Shown: positions 13,141 to 64,000 of the stretch, piece by piece
How positions within the stretch are numbered: the stretch's first letter is position 1
How the letters are laid out: each line of letters begins with the position of its first letter
Virus record (IMG/VR): IMGVR_UViG_3300028377_000007
Location: 23,041-87,040 of that record
Strand: one strand, 5' to 3'
DNA: 64,000 nucleotides
Origin: a virus
Notes under the pieces: generated by a model
Told to the model about the DNA's origin: nothing
Databases searched by the model: none
The model's input: the letters and a program-made list of their open reading frames with translations, nothing else
Translations under genes and position numbers: made by a program

Positions 13141-13489
13141 TTTGTATATTTTTTCCTAGTTGCAAAGCTGTTCTTGCATTTTCCAATGCTTTTTCTAAAT
13201 AATTAACCTGTCTTAATTTTCTAATTAAAAATGAATTTAAAGCCTCTTCTTTGGTGGGGTAAGCATATCTCTTTCGAGAGACTTTCGAAACCCATTTTTC
13301 TGTACACTTAAATATATAAAAATCTCCTTTATAAATTTCTTTTATCCAATAGCCCTTTGGGGTTTCTTTTGTTACATCAAACTCAATTAGTTTTACCTCT
13401 ATATTATCATAACTACATCTTACAAAATTATCAAATGGGTCTATTCCTCCTGTTGAGTGTATATCTTCTTGATATCTATAGTGTTTCAT
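13121..13489 (-). CDS. hypothetical phage protein (uninterrupted copy; carries the empty G|AT site)
   Basis: ETPKGYW...RYAYPTKEEALNSF. Confidence 0.7.
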   Translation of the reverse strand: MKHYRYQEDIHSTGGIDPFDNFVRCSYDNIEVKLIEFDVTKETPKGYWIKEIYKGDFYIFKCTEKWVSKVSRKRYAYPTKEEALNSFLIRKLRQVNYLEKALENARTALQLGKNIQNEIPQK

Positions 13490-13526
13490 TAAATTTTTAA
13501 AAAGTAAGTATAATCAGATTCATTTA
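13446..13526. repeat. direct duplication: matches 13718-13743 plus 14023-14078
   Basis: cctcctgttg(a/g)gtgtatatcttcttg and atatctatagtgtttcattaaatttttaaaaagtaagtataatcagattcattta each occur twice. Confidence 0.9.
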
Positions 13527-13743
13527 GGGATTCTATTTGTTAAGAATTATTGTGGCGTCTTTTTTTTTAAAGTCAATACTTTTTTGAAAAATTTATTTTT
13601 TAAGTTTCTCGTGGGGCTTGGATATCGTCTTTTTCGCTTACATCGAACTCGTGGTTTTATTCGCTTATTCTGCCGTGAGAATATTCGCTTATTGCGCAGA
13701 AAAATAAAATAGATTCTCCTCCTGTTGGGTGTATATCTTCTTG

Positions 13744-13968
13744 TTATAATTCACTGGAGAAGAAAAAATGGTCAGTATCGGCGGCAGCGTATTGCCCTAG
13801 TTTTTGGCTCACCCCATCCTTAGCTAAATGATAGCACAACCATCCCTTGTATTCATCGAGGTACCTGTTCGTGTAGGAAATGGAATGAGGGCGCTTGCCG
13901 TATTTTTCGATATACTTGTCCCAAGCCTTGCGGTCCTTACCTCTAGTCGGTCTCGATTCGTAATACAT
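13744..13968 (-). CDS. cassette-borne hypothetical protein (MYYESRP..., 74 aa)
   Basis: internal ATG next to the attC; the ORF-track version is a fusion with the interrupted host gene start MKHYRY. Confidence 0.65.
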   Translation of the reverse strand: MYYESRPTRGKDRKAWDKYIEKYGKRPHSISYTNRYLDEYKGWLCYHLAKDGVSQKLGQYAAADTDHFFFSSEL

Positions 13969-14022
13969 AATTATAACCAGCCAGATCAGGACAACTCGCT
14001 TCGCTAGCGCCTGTCTTCGAAA
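13744..14022 (+). mobile_element. integron-type gene cassette with attC-like site 13971-14022, carrying a minus-strand ORF
   Basis: starts G|TTATAATT, complementary to AATTATAAC at 13969-13977; L'' AGATCAG / L' CTGTCT; higher GC than flanks; absent from the duplicated empty copy. Confidence 0.8.
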
Positions 14023-14908: not shown

Positions 14909-16126
14909 TCATATTTTTAAGATATAAACTCTTGATTTTTTGTTAAATTCCTGCTTCACAGAACAGCTAACCAAACTTTCGTTTGATGAACTCTGTTCTC
15001 CACAGGCCGACACGGTAGAGCTTACCGCCAAATTCTTTAAATTGATAGAGGCATTAAAATCCCTATCCATTTTATTGTCACACACCTTACACTCAAATAC
15101 TCTATCCGTCAAGGTCAGACTTTCGTTTTTCCATCCGCAGCATGAACACAATTTAGAGCTAGCGAAGAAAGTATCGGCAAAGATAACTTTTCTATTGCTC
15201 CATTTTGCTTTATATTCGACCTGACGACGAAATTCGAATAGTCCAACATCACTGATAGCTTGCGCCAAACAATGATTCTTCATCATATTGCTTACTTTCA
15301 AATCTTCTAAAACTATTGTTTTATTTTCACGAACAATTTTAGTGGTTATTTTATGCAAGCAATCTTTACGAATATTTGATATGTGATTGTGTAGTTTTGC
15401 TAATTTTTGTTTTGCTTTTCCATAGTTTTTACTTCCTTTTTTCTTTCTTGATAATTGACGTTGTTTGAGCTTTAATTTATTGAGATTCTTCTTTAATGCT
15501 TTGGGATTTTCGTAAGTCGTCCCGTCTGAGCAAGTAGCCAGAGTCTTAATGCCTAAATCAACTCCAATTACATCATTAATGGCGTTTGTAGGCTCTCTAT
15601 CGGGCGTTTCTACTTGAACCGACACAAACCATCTGCCAGCTTTCTTGGACACTGTAGCAGATAAGATTTTACAATCGGTTGGAATATAATCTTTTTCGGC
15701 TAATTTCAGCTTACCGATTCGCGGCAATTTAATACATCCAGATTCAACCGAAATTGCTCCATCCAATCTAAAAGATTGTTTGTCATTCTTTTTGGATTTG
15801 AATTTCGGGAACCCTTTCTTGCCTTTAACTTTTTTCTTGCAACGAGTGAAGAAATTTTGAAATGCTTTATCACAATCTCTTAATGCGTTTTGTGGCGAAC
15901 TTTTGCTTGAATTATACATCCAAGGAATATCGGTTTTCTTTAGTTTGTTTAATTCTCTATGAAGTTCAATAGCATTAGGGGTTTTCTCTTTCTTATCAAA
16001 TGCCTCTTTCTTGATATTTAAAGCCCAATTATAAGCAAAACGCGCCGCGCCCAAAGATTTCATCAGGTCGGTTTTTTGTGCATTGTTGGTCACTACAATC
16101 TCGGTTTTATATGCTCGTAAAATCAT
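14909..16126 (-). CDS. tnpB: TnpB RNA-guided endonuclease
   Basis: RAYKTE, RFAYNWAL, GVDLG, VLEDL, CSCC..CKVC, DRDFNAS. Confidence 0.95.
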   Translation of the reverse strand: MILRAYKTEIVVTNNAQKTDLMKSLGAARFAYNWALNIKKEAFDKKEKTPNAIELHRELNKLKKTDIPWMYNSSKSSPQNALRDCDKAFQNFFTRCKKKVKGKKGFPKFKSKKNDKQSFRLDGAISVESGCIKLPRIGKLKLAEKDYIPTDCKILSATVSKKAGRWFVSVQVETPDREPTNAINDVIGVDLGIKTLATCSDGTTYENPKALKKNLNKLKLKQRQLSRKKKGSKNYGKAKQKLAKLHNHISNIRKDCLHKITTKIVRENKTIVLEDLKVSNMMKNHCLAQAISDVGLFEFRRQVEYKAKWSNRKVIFADTFFASSKLCSCCGWKNESLTLTDRVFECKVCDNKMDRDFNASINLKNLAVSSTVSACGEQSSSNESLVSCSVKQEFNKKSRVYILKI

Positions 16127-16632: not shown

Positions 16633-17133
16633 ACCAATTCCTCCATTTCTTTCTTAATTCATTTTCAAAGCCCTTAGACATCACTTCTTCAACTTTTTCA
16701 ATCCTAACTTTATATGAATTAAAATATGAAACCAAATAATTAAAGCAAAATCTCGACAATCTATCTTTATGCTCAATCAAAACCACATCAATTTCTTTCG
16801 CTTCCACCAATTCAAATAATTACAGCAATAATACTGTAACCGCGTTTAAGAGCTTCTGTAGTCATTCTACCAACCTGCCTCCCTAAGTCGCCTTTAGTCT
16901 TTTGTTCGTGCGGGCTAACGCGACAATAGATAGCTGCACGCTTACCGCTAGATTCTTTAATGGGTTCAACATAAATTCCCGCCAACTTCTCAATATCGCT
17001 GCGATAATAGCGTCTATGTCTGCCTTCGGTATGAAACGGCGTTAATTTGCCTGCACGTTCCCAATTCCTTAATGTTTCGTCGGAAACACCAAGAATAGAT
17101 GCGGCATCGCTGATAGATAGAATCTTTTTATCC
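16610..17133 (-). pseudogene. tnpA: IS607 TnpA serine recombinase, broken by an internal deletion/frameshift and C-terminal truncation
   Basis: MerR HTH, AIYCRVS (frame 1); IEHKDRLSRF (frame 2). Confidence 0.85.
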
Positions 17134-42842: not shown

Positions 42843-43175
42843 TCAGTTGTCAACCCTTGAATAGAAGGCTAGCTTTTCAAGCTGACTCCCCACCTTTCTC
42901 TCTAGCCAGTCGTCGTGGGGTCGTTGGCCTTTAGCGTTAGCGGGGATTACTTTGAATCGCGCTCCTGCGGCTTTGTCTTCATCGCCGCCGAAAGTGAATT
43001 GAAGGCCGCTCGATCTGGATAGGTCGTCCACTTCGCAGATTCCCCAAGTCCAGCGGTCGGCATTATCAGGTTCATTGAGAGTCATCATCTCGCATTCCGC
43101 CTTCATCAGTTCGATGAGCGCGGCTTTGAATCGTGGCGTGATTTTGATTTCTTCGGTGTCGTATTGTGCTTTCAT
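42843..43175 (-). CDS. GC-rich hypothetical protein, probably cassette-derived
   Basis: GC clearly above flanks; 3' end runs through a degenerate attC-like hairpin. Confidence 0.65.
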   Translation of the reverse strand: MKAQYDTEEIKITPRFKAALIELMKAECEMMTLNEPDNADRWTWGICEVDDLSRSSGLQFTFGGDEDKAAGARFKVIPANAKGQRPHDDWLERKVGSQLEKLAFYSRVDN

Positions 43176-43284: not shown

Positions 43285-43357
43285 TGGAGTCCCGTAACGG
43301 AATCTAACCGTGTATCAAGGGTTGCAACCTTGCGCATAAACATTCTGCCAACGAGAC
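43285..43357 (-). tRNA. tRNA-Cys(GCA)
   Basis: cloverleaf, U73, CCA. Confidence 0.85.
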
Positions 43358-43364
43358 TTAAAAA

Positions 43365-44175
43365 CTAGCTTGAGATTAAAGCTTTATAAGTAAGATCTTT
43401 AAAAAGATTATTGTTTCCTTTCTTATCCACGGATTTTAGCCCGTATCCTTACACGACTGCCTTTTTAAACTTGTGGCGTTTCAAGCATATCTAAGACTAT
43501 TCTACCGTTTTTATTCTCCGTTAAAGCCGCTAAACCCTAACGAATTTTACTCCACGATAAAACTAAGATTCCTTGTGAGAATACTTAGCACCAAATTCCC
43601 TTTCGAGTGTGGCATTAAGCCGCTTTCATCTTAGATTGGACGAGATTTTTACATAATAATTGGGATTGAACCAATATACTATTCCTTTAGATGGAATTGC
43701 TATACCATTTAGCTATATTATTTTTTCCCTACTGAATGGTACTCGTCCAATCGCTTTCTTCCCTTTTGGAGAAAACTATACGATACCGCCCATTATCCTC
43801 TTCTTGCCGAAGTTTAGACCATACTTCACGAAAATTTCTTTCCATTTGTATTACCAAGAACCATTTACCTGCAAAGTTTACAGAACTTGATTACCGTTAA
43901 TTGATGCTATCTACTTATTTTGCATCCCTTAGAAATTTGCGGTTTCGCGACTCTCACCGTTGGCCTGAGTCTTAGGATAAATAAATAACTACTTCTATTT
44001 CCATAAAAGTTTAGCTTTTCAGCTTCACAATCTTGGCTTGCGTAAATAACCTTTGGTTTATGACTTCCAAGGCGATAAAGTGTAGGCTTTATCTTTCCGA
44101 TACTCTCATACCGCCATTTTCCTCCACAACTTTGTTTGTTGCTTCAATGGTGGATCTCACGCGACCCGTTTAAAA
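43365..44175 (-). ncRNA. large structured ncRNA, GOLLD-like
   Basis: ~800 nt without a credible ORF, many helices, in a tRNA cluster, own promoter; 3' part AAAAGGCAG...GGAUAAGAAAGGAAACAAUAA...GCUUUAAUCUCAAGC resembles my recollection of GOLLD 3' motifs. Confidence 0.7.
43652..43722 (-). ncRNA. tRNA-like element with CUA anticodon inside the large RNA
   Basis: D arm GCU/AGC, AUUCC-AUCUAAA-GGAAU, AUUGG-UUCAAUC-CCAAU, 6-bp AU acceptor stem, no CCA. Confidence 0.7.
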
Positions 44176-44275
44176 CTGTTAAAGAACAAAATCCTCTTTT
44201 GAAGATTATGATAATGACTATGACGTTTTTTTTTGCAAAGTCAATGCTTTTTTTGAAAAATTTGTTTTTTTAAAA

Positions 44276-44350
44276 TGGGGCGACTAACGGGGATTGAACC
44301 CGTACTCCAATCGTCACAGGATTGTACTCTACCTTTGAGTTATAGCCGCC
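44276..44350 (-). tRNA. tRNA-His(GUG)
   Basis: cloverleaf, encoded G-1, C73. Confidence 0.92.
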
Positions 44351-44355
44351 ATAAA

Positions 44356-44431
44356 TGGTAGTCCCAACAGAACTTGAATCTGTATCTTCCGATTATCGGT
44401 CGGATGCTCTAACCATTTGAGCTATAGGACT
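44356..44431 (-). tRNA. tRNA-Ile(GAU)
   Basis: cloverleaf, CCA. Confidence 0.9.
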
Positions 44432-44568
44432 ATATTAAAACCATTGCTATAATCGGCCAAATGTCAATAAAAAAACCCTTTTTGGCCACTTATAAAAAAA
44501 TAACGGGAAAGATATCTCGTCTTTCTCAAAGTTTGTCCTTTTAACAAACACTTGTGTCCGCTATATAA

Positions 44569-44645
44569 TGGTAGGCGATGTAGGATTCAAACCTACGGCT
44601 TCTTCCGTGTAAAGGAAACACTCTAATCAACTGAGTTAATCGCCC
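44569..44645 (-). tRNA. tRNA-Val(UAC)
   Basis: cloverleaf, CCA. Confidence 0.92.
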
Positions 44646-44657
44646 ATAAATATTGAT

Positions 44658-44749
44658 TGGCGGATAGTGCGGGATTCGAACTCGCGGGGGCTTTTAAACC
44701 CCATTTCTTTAGCAAAGAAACGCCTTAAACCTAACTCAGCCAACTATCC
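44658..44749 (-). tRNA. tRNA-Ser(GCU)
   Basis: long variable arm, CCA. Confidence 0.92.
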
Positions 44750-44757
44750 ATTTATAT

Positions 44758-44831
44758 TGGTGCAACTAGAGAGAATCGAACTCTCATACTAGACTTGGCA
44801 AGCCCATATCATGCCTTTAGATCATAGTTGC
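44758..44831 (-). tRNA. tRNA-Gly(GCC)
   Basis: cloverleaf, CCA. Confidence 0.88.
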
Positions 44832-44837
44832 AAATTT

Positions 44838-44922
44838 TGGTGCGGATAAAGAGATTTGAACTCTTACGCCTTTCGACAATAGCTTTTGAAACTATCATGG
44901 CTACCAATTACATCATATCCGC
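44838..44922 (-). tRNA. tRNA-Leu(CAA)
   Basis: long variable arm, CCA. Confidence 0.9.
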
Positions 44923-44926
44923 AAAA

Positions 44927-45004
44927 TGGAGCAAGATAGGGATTAGGAACCCCTAACGCTCACTTGGAAGGCGAGAACTTTTAACCTATTTAAGCTAATC
45001 TTGC
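44927..45004 (-). tRNA. tRNA-Gly(UCC), atypical T loop
   Basis: cloverleaf, CCA. Confidence 0.78.
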
Positions 45005-45011
45005 ATAAAAA

Positions 45012-45103
45012 TGGCGGAGAGTGTAGGATTCGAACCCACGGAGGCTTTTACACCCCTTTTGTTTTCAAGACAAACGCAATAACCCAGACTCTGCCAACTC
45101 TCC
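45012..45103 (-). tRNA. tRNA-Ser(UGA)
   Basis: long variable arm, CCA. Confidence 0.93.
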
Positions 45104-45251
45104 AGATATACCCATATAAACCGCCGTTTACTAAACCCAAGGGTTGTGAGCTTGGATTACTTCTTTCAATAGTGCAATTACCCATACCCGAACGCATATC
45201 CTTGATTCGGAACCGAAATTTTTATTAAATTAATTATTTATATTTTTTTTC

Positions 45252-45338
45252 TGGTCGATGCGGCGAGAATCCAACTCGCACTCTTTTTACGGAACCAGAG
45301 CCTAAATCTGGCGGGTCTAGCAATTCCCCCACGCACCG
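45252..45338 (-). tRNA. tRNA-Leu(UAG)
   Basis: long variable arm, CCA. Confidence 0.88.
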
Positions 45339-45435
45339 CTTTCTATTTTAAATCAAAGCCTTTTTCTTCGTTTAATTTAATCCACAAAAAATAGTCTGTT
45401 TCGCTAATAGCAAGCTTTAAAGTTTGTTTTTTTGT

Positions 45436-45511
45436 TGGTGCTTGCTATGGGATTCGAACCCATAAACCTCGCATTTTAAGTGCGATCCATAAACCGTTCT
45501 GGTAAGCAAGC
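45436..45511 (-). tRNA. tRNA-Leu(UAA) with short variable loop
   Basis: cloverleaf, CCA. Confidence 0.88.
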
Positions 45512-45518
45512 TTATATA

Positions 45519-45595
45519 TGGTGTATTAGCCGAGAATCGAACTCGGAACATTTTGCTTGGAAGGCAAACACTCTACCTAATTGAGTTACTAATAC
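45519..45595 (-). tRNA. tRNA-Gly(UCC), second copy
   Basis: cloverleaf, CCA. Confidence 0.9.
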
Positions 45596-45623
45596 ATTGT
45601 TTTGTATTTATTATTACAAATTA

Positions 45624-45698
45624 TGGCGTTACAACGGAAATTCGAATTCCGATCCTATAGGTGAAAGCCATAGTGTCCTACCATTAGACGATTGTAAC
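45624..45698 (-). tRNA. tRNA-Glu(UUC)
   Basis: cloverleaf, CCA. Confidence 0.88.
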
Positions 45699-45752
45699 AT
45701 ATTTATTAATTTTTAAAACTTGCTATACTTTTTATAACTTGTCAAGTTTTTT

Positions 45753-45828
45753 TGGCGGGATAGATTGGATTTGAACCAATAACGCCGAATTCTTCAGACT
45801 CGCGCTCTACCGTTGGAGCTACTATCCC
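45753..45828 (-). tRNA. tRNA-Phe(GAA)
   Basis: cloverleaf, CCA. Confidence 0.92.
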
Positions 45829-45838
45829 ATTTTTTAAA

Positions 45839-45913
45839 TGGCTCTGGAGCAGGGAATCGAACCCCGTTCAATTGGTTAACAGCCAATCCGCTCAACCGTG
45901 TGCGTTCACCAGA
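45839..45913 (-). tRNA. tRNA-Asn(GUU)
   Basis: cloverleaf, CCA. Confidence 0.88.
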
Positions 45914-45920
45914 ACAAAAA

Positions 45921-45996
45921 TGGCGGGTATGAGGGGACTGGAACCCCAATTGGAAAAGTAGACAGCCTTCCGCATTACCATATATGCTGCATGCCC
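45921..45996 (-). tRNA. tRNA-Asp(GUC)
   Basis: cloverleaf, CCA. Confidence 0.82.
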
Positions 45997-46180
45997 AAAA
46001 TTTTAAAATAATTAAACAAGAACAATAAACCTTTTTTCTATATACATTTCAATAAGAGAGTTTTGGTTTATTGTTTTAAATTTTTTTTTAAAAATTAATA
46101 ACACAAAGAAGAGTCATGTTATCTAGGATTACAAATCCCGTGCTTAGACCTTTAATATTTTTAAATACTTCTTGTGTTAA

Positions 46181-46256
46181 TGGTGGGGGTAGACGGATTC
46201 GAACCGACTGCCAATTGGTTAAAAGCCAACTGCTCGACCACATGAGCTTTACCCCC
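46181..46256 (-). tRNA. tRNA-Lys(UUU)
   Basis: cloverleaf, CCA. Confidence 0.93.
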
Positions 46257-46367
46257 TTTTATAATTAATCTGGCTGGAGAACCGAGATGAAAACTCCGTA
46301 ACATTTGTTTCGCCGCCCTTAAAACGGTCCCAGTTCTGCTTCTGGTTTGATTGTCGGTTTTTTTCGG

Positions 46368-46444
46368 TGGAGCCGCATGGGTAGATTTGAACTCCCGACC
46401 TTCTCTTTACAAGAGAGATGCTCTACCATCTGAGCTAATGCGGC
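46368..46444 (-). tRNA. tRNA-Thr(UGU)
   Basis: cloverleaf, CCA. Confidence 0.92.
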
Positions 46445-46452
46445 ATAATATT

Positions 46453-46528
46453 TGGTACTCCTATCGAGACTCTAACTCGAAACGCATTGTTCGTAGCAAT
46501 ACATGATATACAATTTCAACATAGGAGC
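46453..46528 (-). tRNA. tRNA-Arg(ACG)
   Basis: cloverleaf, CCA. Confidence 0.85.
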
Positions 46529-46529
46529 T

Positions 46530-46606
46530 TGGTACGAACGGTGGGACTCGAACCCACATATATACAGCTTAGAAGGCTGTTGCCTCTCCAATTAGACTAC
46601 GCTCGC
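46530..46606 (-). tRNA. tRNA-Arg(UCU)
   Basis: cloverleaf, CCA. Confidence 0.92.
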
Positions 46607-46725
46607 ATAAAATAAAAAGCTCTCATAACTCTTGTACGCGCAATACCAAAAGGATATTAACGGAGCAAACATATCCGAGATTATAATTTGTTAAAAGTTT
46701 GTTGATTTCATACTCGATGAGCTTT

Positions 46726-46801
46726 TGGCTGGTTAGACACGACTTGAACGCGCAACAAGAGGGTTTGGAAGCCTCTGCTCTACCAATTGAGCTACTAACC
46801 A
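46726..46801 (-). tRNA. tRNA-Trp(CCA)
   Basis: cloverleaf, CCA. Confidence 0.88.
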
Positions 46802-46810
46802 ATATAATAA

Positions 46811-46884
46811 TGGCAGATCTACCCCGATTTGAACGAGGACAAAATGGACCAAAACCATTTGTGCTACCATTACACTATAGATCT
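46811..46884 (-). tRNA. tRNA-Gln(UUG)
   Basis: cloverleaf, CCA. Confidence 0.9.
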
Positions 46885-46891
46885 GTGAAAA

Positions 46892-46971
46892 TGGGTGCAG
46901 GAGCGGGATTCGAACACCGCGTCCTTCTGGTTATGAGCCAGATATCCTAGACCAGACTAGACCATCCTGCA
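46892..46971 (-). tRNA. tRNA-Met(CAU), possibly initiator-type
   Basis: cloverleaf, CU-CAU-AA loop. Confidence 0.82.
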
Positions 46972-47046
46972 TGGTAGTAACGGTATGATTCGAACATACA
47001 ACCTACTGTTAATGAGACAGTCGCACTTCCATTGTGCTACGCTACT
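46972..47046 (-). tRNA. tRNA(CAU), elongator Met or Ile2
   Basis: cloverleaf, CCA. Confidence 0.85.
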
Positions 47047-47049
47047 ATA

Positions 47050-47125
47050 TGGTGGAGCCAGACGGATTTGAACCGACGACATCTTGCTTGCAAAGCAAGC
47101 GCTCTTCCTACTGAGCTATGGCCCC
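47050..47125 (-). tRNA. tRNA-Ala(UGC)
   Basis: G3-U70, CCA. Confidence 0.95.
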
Positions 47126-47228
47126 ATATTATCTAAAATACACCCACATCAAAAATATTTTACTATTTCTCGGACTTCGAACCCGATATAGTGTCCCGCT
47201 GAATTTATTTATACACATATTTTAGATA

Positions 47229-47305
47229 TGGTCGCCGTAGTAGGATTTGAACCTACGATCTTTTGCTCCCAAAGCAAACGCGATACCAAGCTACGCCATA
47301 CGACG
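47229..47305 (-). tRNA. tRNA-Pro(UGG)
   Basis: cloverleaf, CCA. Confidence 0.92.
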
Positions 47306-47386
47306 ATAATAATTAACCCAAGTATAAATGCGAATATAACAGAAACGCCAATCTATAAGTCTTTCTGATCACACTGATTAATTAAA

Positions 47387-47772
47387 TGGTGGAGATAAAG
47401 GGAGTCGAACCCTTGTCTTATATCTTTTTAATATATTTATTTCTTACAAGCTTAGTTTATTTTTAATTTTAAAATTCATATTTAAATAAACAAATAAATA
47501 TAAACTCGATTTTCTATTATGATTATAGACGAAAAAACTCTATAAAAATTTTACTATTCTGATTAAGCACCGCAACAATTAATAGTGATCCTTGTTTTTT
47601 GATGAGGTTTTACCCAAAGCTTACTAAGCTGCGATTGCTACTGGAGCAACTTCATCTTGGAAGCTTACGATTTTGTTGTTATCGCCAACTATGCGTGTTT
47701 TGAACTTTAAAGATGTATCTTTCTGCTTGTAAAATATACCTAGAAAATACAATCGAATCCAAGTATATCCCC
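47387..47772 (-). ncRNA. ssrA: tmRNA; tag (A)GDNNKIVSFQDEVAPVAIAA**
   Basis: 5' GGGGAUAUACUUGGAUUCGA, 3' GGGUUCGACUCCC...UCUCCACCA, tag ORF 47627-47686. Confidence 0.93.
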
Positions 47773-47783
47773 AAATAATTTTA

Positions 47784-47870
47784 TGGTGTAGGCAGACGGA
47801 ATTGAACCGCCGAGGGTTTCCCCGACTGTTTTACAGACAGTTGCCACGAACCAACAGTGACCTTGCCCAC
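47784..47870 (-). tRNA. tRNA-Tyr(GUA)
   Basis: variable arm, CCA. Confidence 0.9.
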
Positions 47871-59833: not shown

Positions 59834-60103
59834 TTATTCTTCTCCGAATTCTGCGTCTGGGTTTTCGCCTATGCTATACAATTTTTCTTTTGTTTCACAA
59901 TATTTGAAAAGATCAAATAAAAATGCCTTTTCAATACAAAGGTGGGAAAACTTTTCCACTATCTTTGTTTCTCCTTTTTCATCTAGGGTTATCATAAAAA
60001 TACCTTTGATATTTCCATCTCCAGAATTATTATAAATTTCCTCTATCATCTCTAGTGGAATTTGAAAATTTGTATTTTCTATATCTTCTATTTCGTCGCT
60101 CAT
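59834..60103 (-). CDS. hypothetical protein
   Basis: ORF track. Confidence 0.65.
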   Translation of the reverse strand: MSDEIEDIENTNFQIPLEMIEEIYNNSGDGNIKGIFMITLDEKGETKIVEKFSHLCIEKAFLFDLFKYCETKEKLYSIGENPDAEFGEE

Positions 60104-60516
60104 AATATTAATCCTTGTTTTTTAAATATTTGTTTATTCAATCCTTTTCTTATTTCGTCTTCTGTTATTTCGAAAAGTTCTATGTCGTTTATTTCGCAAA
60201 ACTTTCTTTTTTCTCTGTCTCTTTTTAATTGCATTAGAAAGTTTGCTTTATTTTTATTATGGAAATGTCCAACATATTCGAAATGTTGTCTCCCTTGGAC
60301 TTCTATTGCTATATTTCTGTTTGCATTAAAAAAATCTAGAGTATATCTTGTTCCTAAAACTGGAAACTCTTCAAATACAACGTGATTTTTCCAGTATTTT
60401 TGCAAATATTTTTTTGTGGTAAATTGAACTTTACTTCTGCTTTTAGCATCCCAGTCTATTAAATATTTATGTATTTTAGCGTTTTTTTCTCTGCCATCTA
60501 TAGTTTTAAAAACCAT
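60100..60516 (-). CDS. PD-(D/E)XK / Vsr-like endonuclease
   Basis: EEFP, LDFF, IEVQGRQH, RDREK. Confidence 0.78.
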   Translation of the reverse strand: MVFKTIDGREKNAKIHKYLIDWDAKSRSKVQFTTKKYLQKYWKNHVVFEEFPVLGTRYTLDFFNANRNIAIEVQGRQHFEYVGHFHNKNKANFLMQLKRDREKRKFCEINDIELFEITEDEIRKGLNKQIFKKQGLIL

Positions 60517-61670
60517 TATTCTACACTAGAAAAAATCTTTCTAAAATATTTATAAAAATGATCCACAAATTTTTTATTTTCTTTTTGCTCTAACCATTTT
60601 ACAACTGATTCCTCTCCTTGAATTTTATCAAATGTTGGAACGTTTTCTTTTTCTAGCTCTTCTTTTAAAGATTTTTCTATGCTAAACCAAGACCCCTTTT
60701 TCTCTAAACAAGCCCAATCCAAACACGTTTCTAATATTTCTCTTTCTAGCCAAATTGATTCTCCGTCCTCTGAATCATATCTAATCGGATATTGAACAAT
60801 TGCGCCAGTTTTTTGATTATCACTTTTTCTAAATTTAACTACACATTTATGACCAAGCATTTTTCTATCGTTATCAAAAGGGTTTGTTTTTTTATCCTTT
60901 TTCTTATCGTAGATAGTAAAATTCTCCCCGAAATATCTTCTAAAATCTAAACTAAAATTAGAATAGTGATCAATCGATTTTCCACCAGCCTGACTTTCTT
61001 TTGGGGGTTTTCCGCCGTGCCCCATATCTATTGTGATTCTTACTTGCGAAATAAGAATTATTCTATGCCCCAATTTATTTGTTGGTAAAGAAAACTTTTT
61101 TAAGAATACGCTATTAGTTAAAGCCCCACCAGCAACTTTTTCTGAATCGGAGAACGGCCTCTTTAAATCCTCTTTCCTAACTAAAGCATCAGAGCTATCG
61201 ATTATAATAAAATACTTATTGTTGTTGGGGTTGTTTTCTATCAAATCTTTGATAAAATCAAAAACAACTTCTGTAACATTGCTGTCTAATATAAAAAATT
61301 TATCTTTAGAAATATCTATTCCCGCCCTTTTCAGCATTGATTTTTTTAATCTACCCTCCGCTTTAACATAAACAACTATATTTTTATCTGATGCTTTTTG
61401 AAAATTTTTAGCAAAAGATAAAGCTTGGCTAGTTTTTCCACTTTCATATGGCCCACCATGTCTATGTATACCAACTGGCAAACCGCCATCCATAGCAATA
61501 TCAAGAAGTAAGCTCCCACTTGGGATTCTACTTTCATCGTCGATAATATTATTATAATGATAATCTTTATTATTTTTGTCGTTTAAGAACTTTTGGGTTT
61601 GTTCGTAAAAAGATACATTGTTATCTTCTTTTGTTTTGGTTTTGGTTTCGGTTTTAGTTTTATTTGTCAT
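60516..61670 (-). CDS. recA: RecA/UvsX-like recombinase
   Basis: SGSLLLDIAMDGG, GPYESGKT, IIDS, ISQVR. Confidence 0.88.
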   Translation of the reverse strand: MTNKTKTETKTKTKEDNNVSFYEQTQKFLNDKNNKDYHYNNIIDDESRIPSGSLLLDIAMDGGLPVGIHRHGGPYESGKTSQALSFAKNFQKASDKNIVVYVKAEGRLKKSMLKRAGIDISKDKFFILDSNVTEVVFDFIKDLIENNPNNNKYFIIIDSSDALVRKEDLKRPFSDSEKVAGGALTNSVFLKKFSLPTNKLGHRIILISQVRITIDMGHGGKPPKESQAGGKSIDHYSNFSLDFRRYFGENFTIYDKKKDKKTNPFDNDRKMLGHKCVVKFRKSDNQKTGAIVQYPIRYDSEDGESIWLEREILETCLDWACLEKKGSWFSIEKSLKEELEKENVPTFDKIQGEESVVKWLEQKENKKFVDHFYKYFRKIFSSVE

Positions 61671-61673
61671 TTG

Positions 61674-62057
61674 TCATTTGTCATTTTTAAAAATTTGTTT
61701 TGTTGTTGTAATTTTTTTATGGGGCATTTCTAGCGGCTTGAAATAAGAAGAATTGTCCTCATCAAAAACTATAGCTTCTTTTCTTTCGAAGTCAAGTCCA
61801 AATTCAAAATATTTGTCTTCTAAATACCTATCTCCGTCTTCCGACCTGAACCAAGCAAGTGAATTTAATTTGAATTTGCATGTTGTTTTAATCCAAAAAT
61901 TCTCATCTGGATATTTTTCTAAAAGATAATTTAATATCTTCATTTCTCTCGGCCAAAAACCCTTTTGTTTTTGATTAGAAGTTTCCGTGAATTTTTTTAC
62001 GATTTCTCTTTTATTGAATTTATTTTCTTTCTTTTTATATGTTCTTTTTTTTGTCAT
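61674..62057 (-). CDS. hypothetical protein
   Basis: ORF track. Confidence 0.65.
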   Translation of the reverse strand: MTKKRTYKKKENKFNKREIVKKFTETSNQKQKGFWPREMKILNYLLEKYPDENFWIKTTCKFKLNSLAWFRSEDGDRYLEDKYFEFGLDFERKEAIVFDEDNSSYFKPLEMPHKKITTTKQIFKNDK

Positions 62058-63010
62058 ATAATTGAGTACTTTATGTTTTTCATTTTAGTTATATCTATTA
62101 TATTGTGATAACTCATACAAGATTGTATTCCTTGTTTTATTTTTTCATAATATTCGGTGTAGGTCAAATTATTACAATCTAATATAATCTCATCAAAACC
62201 CTCTGAATAATCATCCGATCCTTTATTTACACTACTTGCCGAACCAAAATATATTTTTTTATTTGGAAGTCCACCATTTTTATGAGAATATGTTTCTGCT
62301 GGGCTATCAACGCATTTAACAAATTCAGATCCAGACATAACCATTGTGGCTCCAGCAACAAGAGCCTTTGAATAATCTCCTATTTCTCTGATTCCGCCGT
62401 CTGCTATAACTGGTAAAACATTATCTCTAGCGCAAGATAAAACAGCAGAAAACTGCGGAAGTCCGACCCCTGTTTTATTATAAGTTGAACACGCCCCGCC
62501 CTGAGCTATTCCGACTTTCGCAATATCAACGTCCCAATCTTTAAAATCTTTTACGGCAGATGAAGTAATAATATTCCCAGCTATAATTTTTATTTTATCT
62601 CCGAAAGTATTTTTTATAAAACTTACAATATGTTTCATTTTCAAACAATGACCATGTGCAATATCGATAGTTATATAATCTACTCTTAAATTTTTTTCCT
62701 TTATTTTATCTAATAAATTATAGTCTTTTTCATTTGCTCCTATTGATATTGAAATTAAAGATAGGTTTTGATTGTTTTCTATCCACTCTAATATTTGATC
62801 ATACTCATAAAACCTGTGCAAAATATAAAAATAACCAAGCTCTGATAATTCCTTTGCTTTTTCAAAAGAAATAGAACACACCATATTTGCTGGTATTGCT
62901 GGAGAAAGAAATTTTCTACCGCATAATTCTGTTGATACAGACAAACCTCTTCTAGAAGGTATTTTTGAAAAAACTGGATTTGCAAAAAATATATCTTTAT
63001 AATGGTACAT
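62054..63010 (-). CDS. guaC: GMP reductase
   Basis: PANM, LHRF, IDIAHGH, KVGIAQGGAC, IADGGIR. Confidence 0.88.
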   Translation of the reverse strand: MYHYKDIFFANPVFSKIPSRRGLSVSTELCGRKFLSPAIPANMVCSISFEKAKELSELGYFYILHRFYEYDQILEWIENNQNLSLISISIGANEKDYNLLDKIKEKNLRVDYITIDIAHGHCLKMKHIVSFIKNTFGDKIKIIAGNIITSSAVKDFKDWDVDIAKVGIAQGGACSTYNKTGVGLPQFSAVLSCARDNVLPVIADGGIREIGDYSKALVAGATMVMSGSEFVKCVDSPAETYSHKNGGLPNKKIYFGSASSVNKGSDDYSEGFDEIILDCNNLTYTEYYEKIKQGIQSCMSYHNIIDITKMKNIKYSII

Positions 63011-63034
63011 ATGTTATTTATTTTTAAAAGTAAA

Positions 63035-63094
63035 TTCTAACTCTTCGTTACTCACAATCCTCATTCTTCGGATGAGAGAGCAGAACTATTCGAC
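63035..63094 (+). other. attC-like site A
   Basis: TTCTAAC-5-GTTACTC...GAGAGC-6-ATTCGAC (G>A in R'). Confidence 0.7.
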
Positions 63095-63279
63095 AGGAGA
63101 TTATCAAAGTCTTCATTCGTCTTTAGAATCTCAGCAACCACAGGGCAAGGTTCGTCGCTGTTGTGGTATTCCGTTTTACGGTGGGACAGTTCGTGGCAGC
63201 CTGATACGTGCCGATTGAGGCAACGAGAAAGCCTGACAGCCATATCTTTCCACGCTTTAGCTTTTTGTTTATCTGTCAT
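63061..63279 (-). CDS. cassette 1 hypothetical protein (start probably MTDKQK)
   Basis: lies between attC A and B; stop codon inside the attC hairpin. Confidence 0.65.
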   Translation of the reverse strand: MTDKQKAKAWKDMAVRLSRCLNRHVSGCHELSHRKTEYHNSDEPCPVVAEILKTNEDFDNLLSNSSALSSEE

Positions 63280-63288
63280 AATAAAAAT

Positions 63289-63349
63289 GTCGAACAAGTC
63301 GCTGGACATCAACGCTCATTCTTCGCGTGAGTCAGCTTGAGCGTTAGAT
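63289..63349 (+). other. attC-like site B
   Basis: GTCGAAC-5-GCTGGAC...GTCAGC-6-GTTAGAT. Confidence 0.85.
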
Positions 63350-63738
63350 TTAAGAGAATCGAATCTCCAATTTCCAACTCGCCGCACTTTTTCGTAGCCG
63401 TATCGCTCACCAAAAAGAGGCTTACTTTTGGTTATCAAAACATTTCCAAAGCGGAAACTTTCCCTCCTCCATAGGCGGGGAGACCATGCGTAACCGTTTC
63501 CAGTGTCCCAAGTCCCCCCGAACACTTTCGCGTACAGCACAGGTCTACACCACTCGTTTTTACTTCTTGTCCTATGCGGGACGTGGCGAAGATAAAGACG
63601 ACGTAGAAACGAAGTTTTATCCCCACAACCCCTAGAGCATGGTATGTCCTCAAAGGTGTCAGCTTTGCACTTCGGGCAGATTCCAAATGACCTACTCATT
63701 TTTACCCCCCGTTTCATGATAGCAGCCCTCTTCTTCAA
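63316..63738 (-). CDS. cassette 2 hypothetical Zn-finger protein
   Basis: CPKC...CSRGC; GC-rich. Confidence 0.6.
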   Translation of the reverse strand: MKKRAAIMKRGVKMSRSFGICPKCKADTFEDIPCSRGCGDKTSFLRRLYLRHVPHRTRSKNEWCRPVLYAKVFGGTWDTGNGYAWSPRLWRRESFRFGNVLITKSKPLFGERYGYEKVRRVGNWRFDSLKSNAQADSREE

Positions 63739-63889
63739 GCTGTCTGATCACTTCGAGTTCTAGTGTTTCAACACTTTCAAGAGTGCAGAATCTATCACAT
63801 CCCCATTCGGATGATTTGCGAGTATCCCACCCCAATATTTTGTGTTTTTTAATGGCGGCGTGAACCGCCGAGTTTCCTGCTGATGTCAT
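63692..63889 (-). CDS. cassette 2 hypothetical protein
   Basis: ORF track; GC-rich. Confidence 0.55.
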   Translation of the reverse strand: MTSAGNSAVHAAIKKHKILGWDTRKSSEWGCDRFCTLESVETLELEVIRQLEEEGCYHETGGKNE

Positions 63890-63922
63890 ATTTTACCTTT
63901 CATCTTTCATTTTTTGTTAAAA

Positions 63923-63987
63923 ATCTAACCAGTCAGTGCTCACAATTCCGTTCGTGCCTCACTCCATGCGAGACTGTGGTGTTAAAA
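63923..63987 (+). other. attC-like site C
   Basis: ATCTAAC-5-AGTGCTC...GAGACT-5-GTTAAAA. Confidence 0.85.
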
Positions 63988-64000
63988 ATACATATCTTTT

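Follow-up and report, generated by a model that had tools for sequence, protein, structure and literature searches.

The final kilobase of a phage contig from a salt lake carries an array of small gene cassettes bounded by attC-type recombination sites, and such cassettes are exchanged in nature at the point at which an integron integrase cuts. The contig, IMG/VR record IMGVR_UViG_3300028377_000007 (87,040 b, classed as linear and estimated to be 59% complete), belongs to an uncultured phage. We analyzed a window of 64,000 nucleotides that covers bases 23041-87040 of this record; the window end is the contig end, and the array thus lies within the final kilobase. We interpret the element as a cluster of attC sites lacking integron integrases (CALIN) whose cassettes are probably moved by an IntI-type enzyme supplied in trans, a reading to which we assign a probability of about 0.68. 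The array consists of the following parts, all on the + strand and numbered by window position:

63035..63094, + strand: site A, a degenerate attC-like site beside the IMPDH-like gene of the phage, at the attI position of the array (direct reading)
63089..63343, + strand: cassette 1, 255 bp, 46.5% GC; it starts with TTCGAC and ends with site B through the G of G|TT
63289..63349, + strand: site B, the attC of cassette 1 (direct reading, template scan, natural junctions)
63344..63981, + strand: cassette 2, 638 bp, about 46% GC; it holds two genes and ends with site C through the G of G|TT
63923..63987, + strand: site C, the attC of cassette 2 (direct reading, template scan)

In site B, R'' (GTCGAAC, 63289-95), the spacer AAGTC and L'' (GCTGGAC, 63301-07, with a bulged G) are mirrored by L' (GTCAGC, 63331-36), the spacer TTGAGC and R' (GTTAGAT, 63343-49), the crossover falling at 63343|63344. 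Site C is composed of R'' ATCTAAC (63923-29), the spacer CAGTC, L'' AGTGCTC (63935-41, again with a bulged G), L' GAGACT (63970-75), the spacer GTGGT and R' GTTAAAA (63981-87), with the crossover at 63981|63982. In site A we found R'' TTCTAAC (63035-41), a 5-nt spacer, L'' GTTACTC (63047-53), L' GAGAGC (63076-81), a 6-nt spacer and R' ATTCGAC (63088-94). Its L boxes form 5/6 pairs with one bulged base, and its core reads A|TTCGAC with the crossover at 63088|63089. The box anatomy is therefore full in sites B and C, as it is in a further site, D, described below, while site A carries one L-box mismatch; parts of sites B and C resemble site A, with 78% and 74% similarity, respectively. Furthermore, the cores pair across each cassette. 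From B to C the complementarity extends over 9/9 positions, GTTAGATTT (63343-51) being the exact reverse complement of AAATCTAAC (63921-29), and from A to B over 6/6, between TTCGAC in R' of site A and GTCGAA(C), the R'' of site B. The sole deviation from the canonical core at site A is an A for G at 63088, a base that belongs to site A and not to cassette 1.

These observations bear out a sequence-only reading of the same window, which had described three attC-type palindromes at 63035-63987 (site A proved degenerate, and some coordinates were shifted by 1 nt), cores complementary across each cassette (exact from B to C, and exact from A to B except for the A at 63088) and enclosed DNA richer in GC than the phage (about 46% vs 32%). 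The GC fraction is 0.465 in cassette 1, 0.458 in cassette 2 and 0.317 in the remaining window, and the final 19 nt after the crossover of site C drop to 15%. This difference in composition suggests that the cassettes are of foreign origin.

For the attC calls we used a hand-written anatomical template, accompanied by shuffles and a positive control. The strict form of the template (AAC, 5 nt, a 7-nt L'' whose pairing with a 6-nt L' is perfect apart from one bulge, 5-6 nt, GTT) gave seven matches in 174 kb, that is, in the whole contig on both strands, with sites B and C among them. At least two strict matches arose in 12/2000 dinucleotide shuffles of the terminal 957 nt. The positive control was a Vibrio chromosomal integron fragment carrying intI on the phage Va_90-11-286_p16 (MK672802), where the strict template retrieved 16 attCs on the expected strand, with every R' complementing the R'' that follows; three matches fell in the 28 kb of ordinary DNA of the same phage. 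A looser scan, which allowed one L-box mismatch, a variable spacer and ATT, returned more than 600 matches per strand and was uninformative. Rfam, which has no attC model, gave no family match within 62900-64000. A reading of the hairpins as terminators was rejected, as no terminator-like site was found at them.

Three open reading frames (ORFs) occupy the two cassettes:

63061..63279, - strand: ORF1, 72 aa, Cys/His-rich; its start lies 9 nt from R'' of site B
63316..63699, - strand: ORF2, 127 aa, with an N-terminal CxxC...CxxxC zinc-ribbon-like motif and a conserved PHxT...GGTWDTGNGYAW domain
63692..63889, - strand: ORF3, the first gene of cassette 2, 65 aa; its start lies 31 nt from R'' of site C

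Neither ORF1 nor ORF2 contains a stop of its own within its cassette. ORF1 spans the 63088|63089 junction within an Asn codon (AA|T or AA|C) and terminates within the site A loop (63061-63); ORF2 spans the 63343|63344 junction at ...SLKSN (TCT AA|C) and terminates within the site B loop (63316-18). In both cases the final eight codons and the stop come from the adjoining attC, and a loop sequence common to sites A and B gives ...EE-stop in frame to each of them. The stop of ORF3 and the start of ORF2 overlap by 8 nt (ATGAGTAG), and GGGGG is found 5 nt ahead of the ORF2 start.

The strongest and decisive evidence came from alternative junctions in other metagenomes and from the tails of the encoded proteins. 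We compared positions 60000-64000 with Logan contigs of four lake or salt-lake metagenomes, including the runs X2, X4 and X7; X4 and X7 gave no cover over 63350-63885. In run X2, a 7.4-kb contig was identical over 60000-63704, a segment that comprises the phage gene, site A, cassette 1, site B and ORF2. The link between the IMPDH-like gene and site A is present in contigs of all three runs, X2, X4 and X7. One of these contigs (record 16 of X4) continues through the IMPDH-like gene and site A to 63091 and then carries another cassette after the same A|TTC, and the phage-gene contig of X7 stops at 63090. Another X4 contig (record 17) contains a foreign attC-like sequence ending in ...TTTGACG, followed by cassette 1 from exactly 63089, so that a perfect G|TTCGAC is restored. 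Further contigs of X4 and X7 retain the site B hairpin as far as L' together with an ORF1-like cassette, beyond which the 6-nt spacers differ and GTT leads into different cassette starts (GTTCGCG..., GTTCGCC...). In one X4 contig only the centre of site C is in common, followed by a 5-nt spacer and GTTCGCA.

The same boundaries are visible in the proteins, whose relatives diverge exactly past the Asn codon that spans the cut. Relatives of ORF1 are 77-100% identical through ...LLSN and then continue with seven different tails: SSALSSEE (here and in P0021), GELNHE, A, D, AEVSRGHPL..., AKGDSRSPDQ and NQPKETK. Those of ORF2 (60-72% identical) are conserved through ...SLKSN, after which four different tails follow. 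In two ORF1 relatives (P0015 and P0019), the 5' half of site B still encodes an extension of the N-terminus, which indicates that the site B hairpin accompanies ORF1 in the way expected of the attC that belongs to its cassette. Turnover of cassettes is thus seen directly in natural populations. The proposal of the sequence-only reading that accessory genes are gained or swapped by attC recombination is supported by these alternative junctions, and the boundaries in relatives, when set against the GTT cores, fall at 63088|63089 and at the G|TT after site B.

As attCs are nearly symmetric, complementarity alone cannot fix which strand is the top strand, but junctions can. A third cassette, with site D, provided such junctions:

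13744..14022, + strand: site D cassette, 279 bp, single, inserted at a phage G|AT, with a preserved empty copy

The insert starts with TTATAATT, which is complementary over 9/9 positions to its own R'' AATTATAAC (13969-77), and ends with a hairpin whose attC boxes are L'' AGATCAG and L' CTGTCT, the last base being A instead of G. It contains an antisense ORF of 74 aa (13968 to 13744) that starts adjoining R'' and whose stop TAA is the complement of the core TTA. In the empty copy (13447-13529) the flanks abut exactly at CTTCTTG|ATATCT, without target duplication. The target shows neither similarity to the cassette nor resemblance to an att site, and target and cassette share no common 6-8-bp overlap region; from this lack we infer that single-strand exchange fits better than the classical two-strand tyrosine-recombinase reaction. 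Insertion at secondary sites (attG) mediated by IntI follows the consensus G|WT (bioRxiv 10.1101/2022.09.11.507474), with which the sequence of the G|AT target is consistent. This cassette lies in a phage segment that is present in two copies, separated by an unexplained sequence of about 190 nt (13530-13716).

With its empty site, TT start and hairpin end, the site D cassette fixes the polarity independently and demonstrates that the genes are truly antisense. All four ORFs in the three cassettes (4/4) run against the attC polarity and in the direction of the phage genes, and in each case the hairpin lies upstream of the gene. That the ORFs run opposite to the usual orientation, along with the phage, and end inside the hairpins had been noticed from the sequence beforehand; the stops of ORF1 and ORF2 in the loops of sites A and B agree with it, and the polarity is now confirmed by the site D cassette. 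One hairpin per unit, a crossover at a single base on the 3' side, R''/R' complementarity in the circular form and duplication-free insertion at G|WT match published integron recombination.

We then consider what the cassettes encode. No family, defence or counter-defence model in Pfam, PHROGs, NCBIfam or PADLOC matched any cassette protein, and a protein atlas search with a cassette protein returned only scores below 0.8. The AlphaFold model of ORF2 was of low confidence (mean pLDDT 57). Its zinc-ribbon-like N-terminus occurs by itself on P0013, and its PHxT...GNGYxW domain occurs in small proteins of 65-124 aa. Metagenome scans for this domain retrieved only a distant homologue (locus L002:6244-9284) on the phage-like contig Ga0078972_1000388 (181 kb, 59% GC), where a 108-aa protein with the central domain of ORF2 is encoded directly after primase-like and DnaB-like genes; the strict scan detected no attC-like sites on that contig. 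A protein database search with ORF3 returned the exact protein only and no relatives; this protein is present on two contigs, one of them 114,044 b in length. In a blastn comparison of the array with plasmids, the only hit was a 23-nt chance match.

The assignment to a class follows from the sites and from the genes around them. According to the IntegronFinder definition (PMC4889954), a CALIN comprises at least two attCs that share a strand, are separated by less than 4 kb and have no integron integrase in their vicinity. On the + strand, sites A, B and C fall within 953 nt, and the 63 kb of the sequenced side contain no integrase. The array does not represent a complete integron, as no intI is present on the contig, which is 59% complete and carries the array at its broken end; the contig breaks off 19 nt past the crossover of site C. 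Elements of the IS200/IS605 type resemble the array in their imperfect hairpins, in recognition of single-stranded DNA and in the lack of target duplication, and a TnpB gene is found elsewhere in this phage. However, they have hairpins at both ends and require a Y1 HUH transposase, whereas here there is one hairpin per unit, R''/R' boxes are present and the contig gave no match to PF01797, the family of that transposase. The array is hence not a member of that group.

Several observations weigh against a CALIN served by an IntI-type enzyme. The lack of an integrase in the window, already remarked upon in the sequence-only reading, extends to the whole 87,040-b contig, on which no match to PF00589, to TIGR02249 (IntI) or to any other tyrosine recombinase was found. 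Motif scans for ORF1 and for the ORF2 domain in 185,579 species genomes (GTDB) revealed no relative of the cargo and hence no bacterial integron as its source. The conserved core G is replaced by A in sites A (63088) and D (14022), while sites B and C have the G; this A could be an inactivating mutation or a tolerated variant, and the site A junction occurs with two different cassettes despite it. The bulged base in sites B and C is a G on the + strand, so that a C is bulged on the bottom strand. The best-studied attCs carry an extrahelical G on the bottom strand. Moreover, the 9-mer GTTAAAAAT occurs at 63916-24 and 63981-89 as a direct repeat around site C, just before R'' and as the R' core, which the integron model does not foresee. 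Unconstrained DNA folding of the sites gave no significant z-scores relative to shuffles, so the hairpins are weak structures. Finally, all cassette genes are antisense here, as opposed to the control array, in which 15/18 annotated genes are sense. A gene in sense to its attC is a typical feature of integrons and not a defining one, and the uniform antisense layout could mean that the cassette pool or the enzyme is not that of classical integrons.

This last point leads to the alternative that survives best, namely that the cassettes are moved by a dedicated recombinase and not by the classical integron of a host. The unsampled 41% of the phage might encode such an integrase, or a Bacteroidota-type host might contribute a non-IntI (Xer-like) tyrosine recombinase, and the mirrored cassettes would form a phage-adapted pool. 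In favour of it, three cassettes with four genes are all antisense, compared with 3/18 genes in the bacterial-type array, and the cargo was found in none of the bacterial genomes scanned. The cargo also looks phage-associated in view of the 181-kb phage-like contig, where genes for primase and DnaB adjoin the central ORF2 domain. The incompleteness of the contig, with the array at its broken end, leaves room for such a gene, and the A for G at sites A and D, the C bulge of the bottom strand and the GTTAAAAAT repeat keep this explanation in play. Against it, the phage CALINs tested to date are substrates of IntI1 (PMC9892861). Likewise, the 87 kb encode no tyrosine recombinase, and the crossover position, the G|WT target and the absent overlap region fit the published chemistry of IntI. 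We therefore regard a dedicated recombinase as possible but rather unlikely.

A far less probable explanation is that the sites are regulatory stem-loops between genes, and that the genes are swapped by homologous or illegitimate recombination between repeats without any site-specific enzyme, after the manner of promoter-stem-loop (PeSL) elements. PeSLs are mobile regulatory cassettes of T4-type phages, and their exchange is thought to rest on homologous recombination between repeats. They resemble the array in that a large virulent phage has small accessory genes which are bordered by repeated stem-loops and differ between relatives. In favour of this explanation, each site is placed on the transcribed strand between genes of like orientation, the stretches of 74-78% similarity in sites A, B and C could support recombination, and the phage encodes a UvsX-like recombinase. 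Yet the natural junctions fall at one nucleotide of the attC core, at the 3' end of the hairpin and outside the shared stretches, and the cassette at 13744 entered a dissimilar and unrelated sequence. Such a model also gives no role to the R''/R' complementarity of a circularised cassette, and neither a terminator-like nor a strong promoter-like signal was found. Lastly, the position of the array in the final kilobase of a metagenomic contig and the abrupt change of composition might point to an assembly chimera, but the independent 7.4-kb contig of X2 is identical across the join between phage and array, two further runs connect the phage gene with site A, 27-kb and 114-kb contigs are on record as sources of the exact ORF1 and ORF3 proteins, and a further such cassette is found 49 kb inside the contig. 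The join is hence not chimeric, and we give this explanation practically no weight.

For a CALIN served in trans, the following mechanism can be proposed. Each cassette, in its linear form on the + strand, consists of TT, the body and one attC hairpin ending in G, and would be moved as a unit. An IntI-type tyrosine recombinase would cut the folded bottom strand, which is the coding strand of the phage, at AA|C, corresponding to G|TT on the + strand. This enzyme would most likely come from a host integron and act in trans during infection; alternatively, it may be encoded in the unsampled 41% of the phage. Cassettes could enter by two routes, either at the attC-type sites in front of the IMPDH-like gene or at secondary G|WT sites such as that of the cassette at 13744. 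In the mirrored layout, with the gene on the bottom strand and the hairpin upstream, we infer that the gene is read by leftward phage transcription. Its 3' end abuts or crosses the junction, and the tails and stops of ORF1 and ORF2 depend on the adjoining attC. An attC bottom strand within the lagging-strand template is reported to favour attC folding and cassette excision (PMC13108822). If replication is co-directional with transcription, as the uniform skew suggests, the attC bottom strands would be on the lagging-strand template here as well, and this placement may account for the mirrored build of cassettes that are read leftward.

Clusters of attC sites in phages are already known. Qi et al. 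2023 (PMC9892861) described 17 CALINs in phages and demonstrated that five attCs from virulent phages recombine with IntI1; the cassettes of TJE1 and PH101 are of typical layout in that study, and divergent attCs are mentioned in passing. Like the array described here, these phage CALINs have at least two attCs, small genes of unassigned function and a phage without integrase, for which reliance on bacterial IntI was proposed. In contrast to their typical layout, the genes here are on the opposite strand, two of them run through the junction, and turnover was seen in populations; sites of those CALINs were tested with IntI1, whereas ours were characterized from sequence. The control array (MK672802) has in common with ours the R''/L''/L'/R' boxes with one bulge, spacers of 5 nt and 5-6 nt, G|TT, complementarity of each R' to the next R'' and one hairpin per cassette. 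It differs in that our array has no intI, attI or Pc, its attCs measure 60-65 nt compared with about 127 nt, its genes are antisense and its first site is attC-like with A|TT. Insertion into attG sites as reported by Loot and co-workers (bioRxiv 10.1101/2022.09.11.507474) resembles the site D event in its exact ends, the lack of duplication and a target unlike an att site, but here the target is a phage sequence, the last base of the cassette is A and not G, and the event is deduced from a preserved empty copy. In the literature searched, we found no paper on a consistent mirror-image layout, on genes completed by a neighbouring attC or on cassette turnover in phage populations.

The bearer of the array is a large phage of virulent or lytic type from saline lakes, with about 32% GC. 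Its contig encodes an RIIA homologue, a DnaE-type DNA polymerase, a DnaB-like helicase, a UvsX-like recombinase, a Lon-like protease and an NAD synthetase. All 23 ORFs of at least 300 aa (23/23) are on the minus strand, and the GC skew is uniformly negative. The neighbour of the array is the following gene:

62054..63010, - strand: IMPDH/GMP-reductase-like gene of the phage (Pfam PF00478 at 1e-41, phrog_9582)

This gene lies directly downstream of the array in the sense of transcription and forms the constant boundary on the phage side in all samples. A blastn search with neighbouring phage genes gave no match among cultured phages, and no IMG/VR contig proved close; scans of viral contigs with ORF2, the IMPDH-like gene, ORF1, a DNA word of ORF3 and the UvsX-like gene also revealed no relatives. 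The DNA polymerase is at most 32% identical to any cultured-phage protein, and owing to this distance no host was inferred. Contigs of X4 and X7 skip 38 nt (61640-61677) at the start of the UvsX-like gene and in its upstream spacer, a gap that appears to be an indel polymorphism within the phage population.

Other parts of the contig showed features of their own. At 43285-47870 (- strand), 27 tRNA genes are accompanied by a tmRNA with the tag GDNNKIVSFQDEVAPVAIAA; one of the tRNAs has a CTA anticodon and is assigned as Pyl by ARAGORN. The rise in GC at 43-48 kb is due to this tRNA array. An isolated GC-rich gene (up to 55%) of 110 aa at 42843-43175 (- strand) has no family match and no attC anatomy at its ends, and looks like a foreign gene that arrived by another route. 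Further GC-rich islands (up to 52-55% GC) lie outside the window at contig positions 601-1650, 1901-2200 and 8301-8750, with no strict attC template match at their edges; the islands at window positions 42843-43175 and at contig positions 601-1650 and 8301-8750 have neither attC anatomy nor shared flanks. The stretches at 14909-16126 and 16691-16937 hold the TnpB gene (OrfB_IS605, with Cas12f1-like TNB and HTH domains) and, upstream of it, pieces of a serine-recombinase (Resolvase) domain, which gave two weak matches (14 bits) in different open frames and probably point to a decayed IS607-type element.

Integrons are regarded as bacterial devices, and attC clusters in phages have so far been reported only as rare passengers with a normal layout. 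Here, a phage of lytic type has cassettes that are exchanged in nature, a cassette at a secondary site with its empty allele, and a consistently reversed layout. This reversal would put the cassette genes under phage transcription, and neighbouring recombination sites provide the stop codons. As a tentative extension, which we think will more probably fail than hold, phages might keep a mirror-image cassette pool of their own, with hairpin-first genes that are expressed by read-through, many of them taking their stop from the neighbouring attC and having their C-terminus rewritten with each move. A dedicated or phage recombinase might serve this pool, and small accessory, possibly counter-defence, proteins might be exchanged through it among unrelated lytic phages. 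If the reversal is the rule, the cassettes would represent a phage-side branch of the integron cassette pool. They would then offer a tractable source of small mobile accessory genes of phages and a way to tie phages to integron-bearing hosts.

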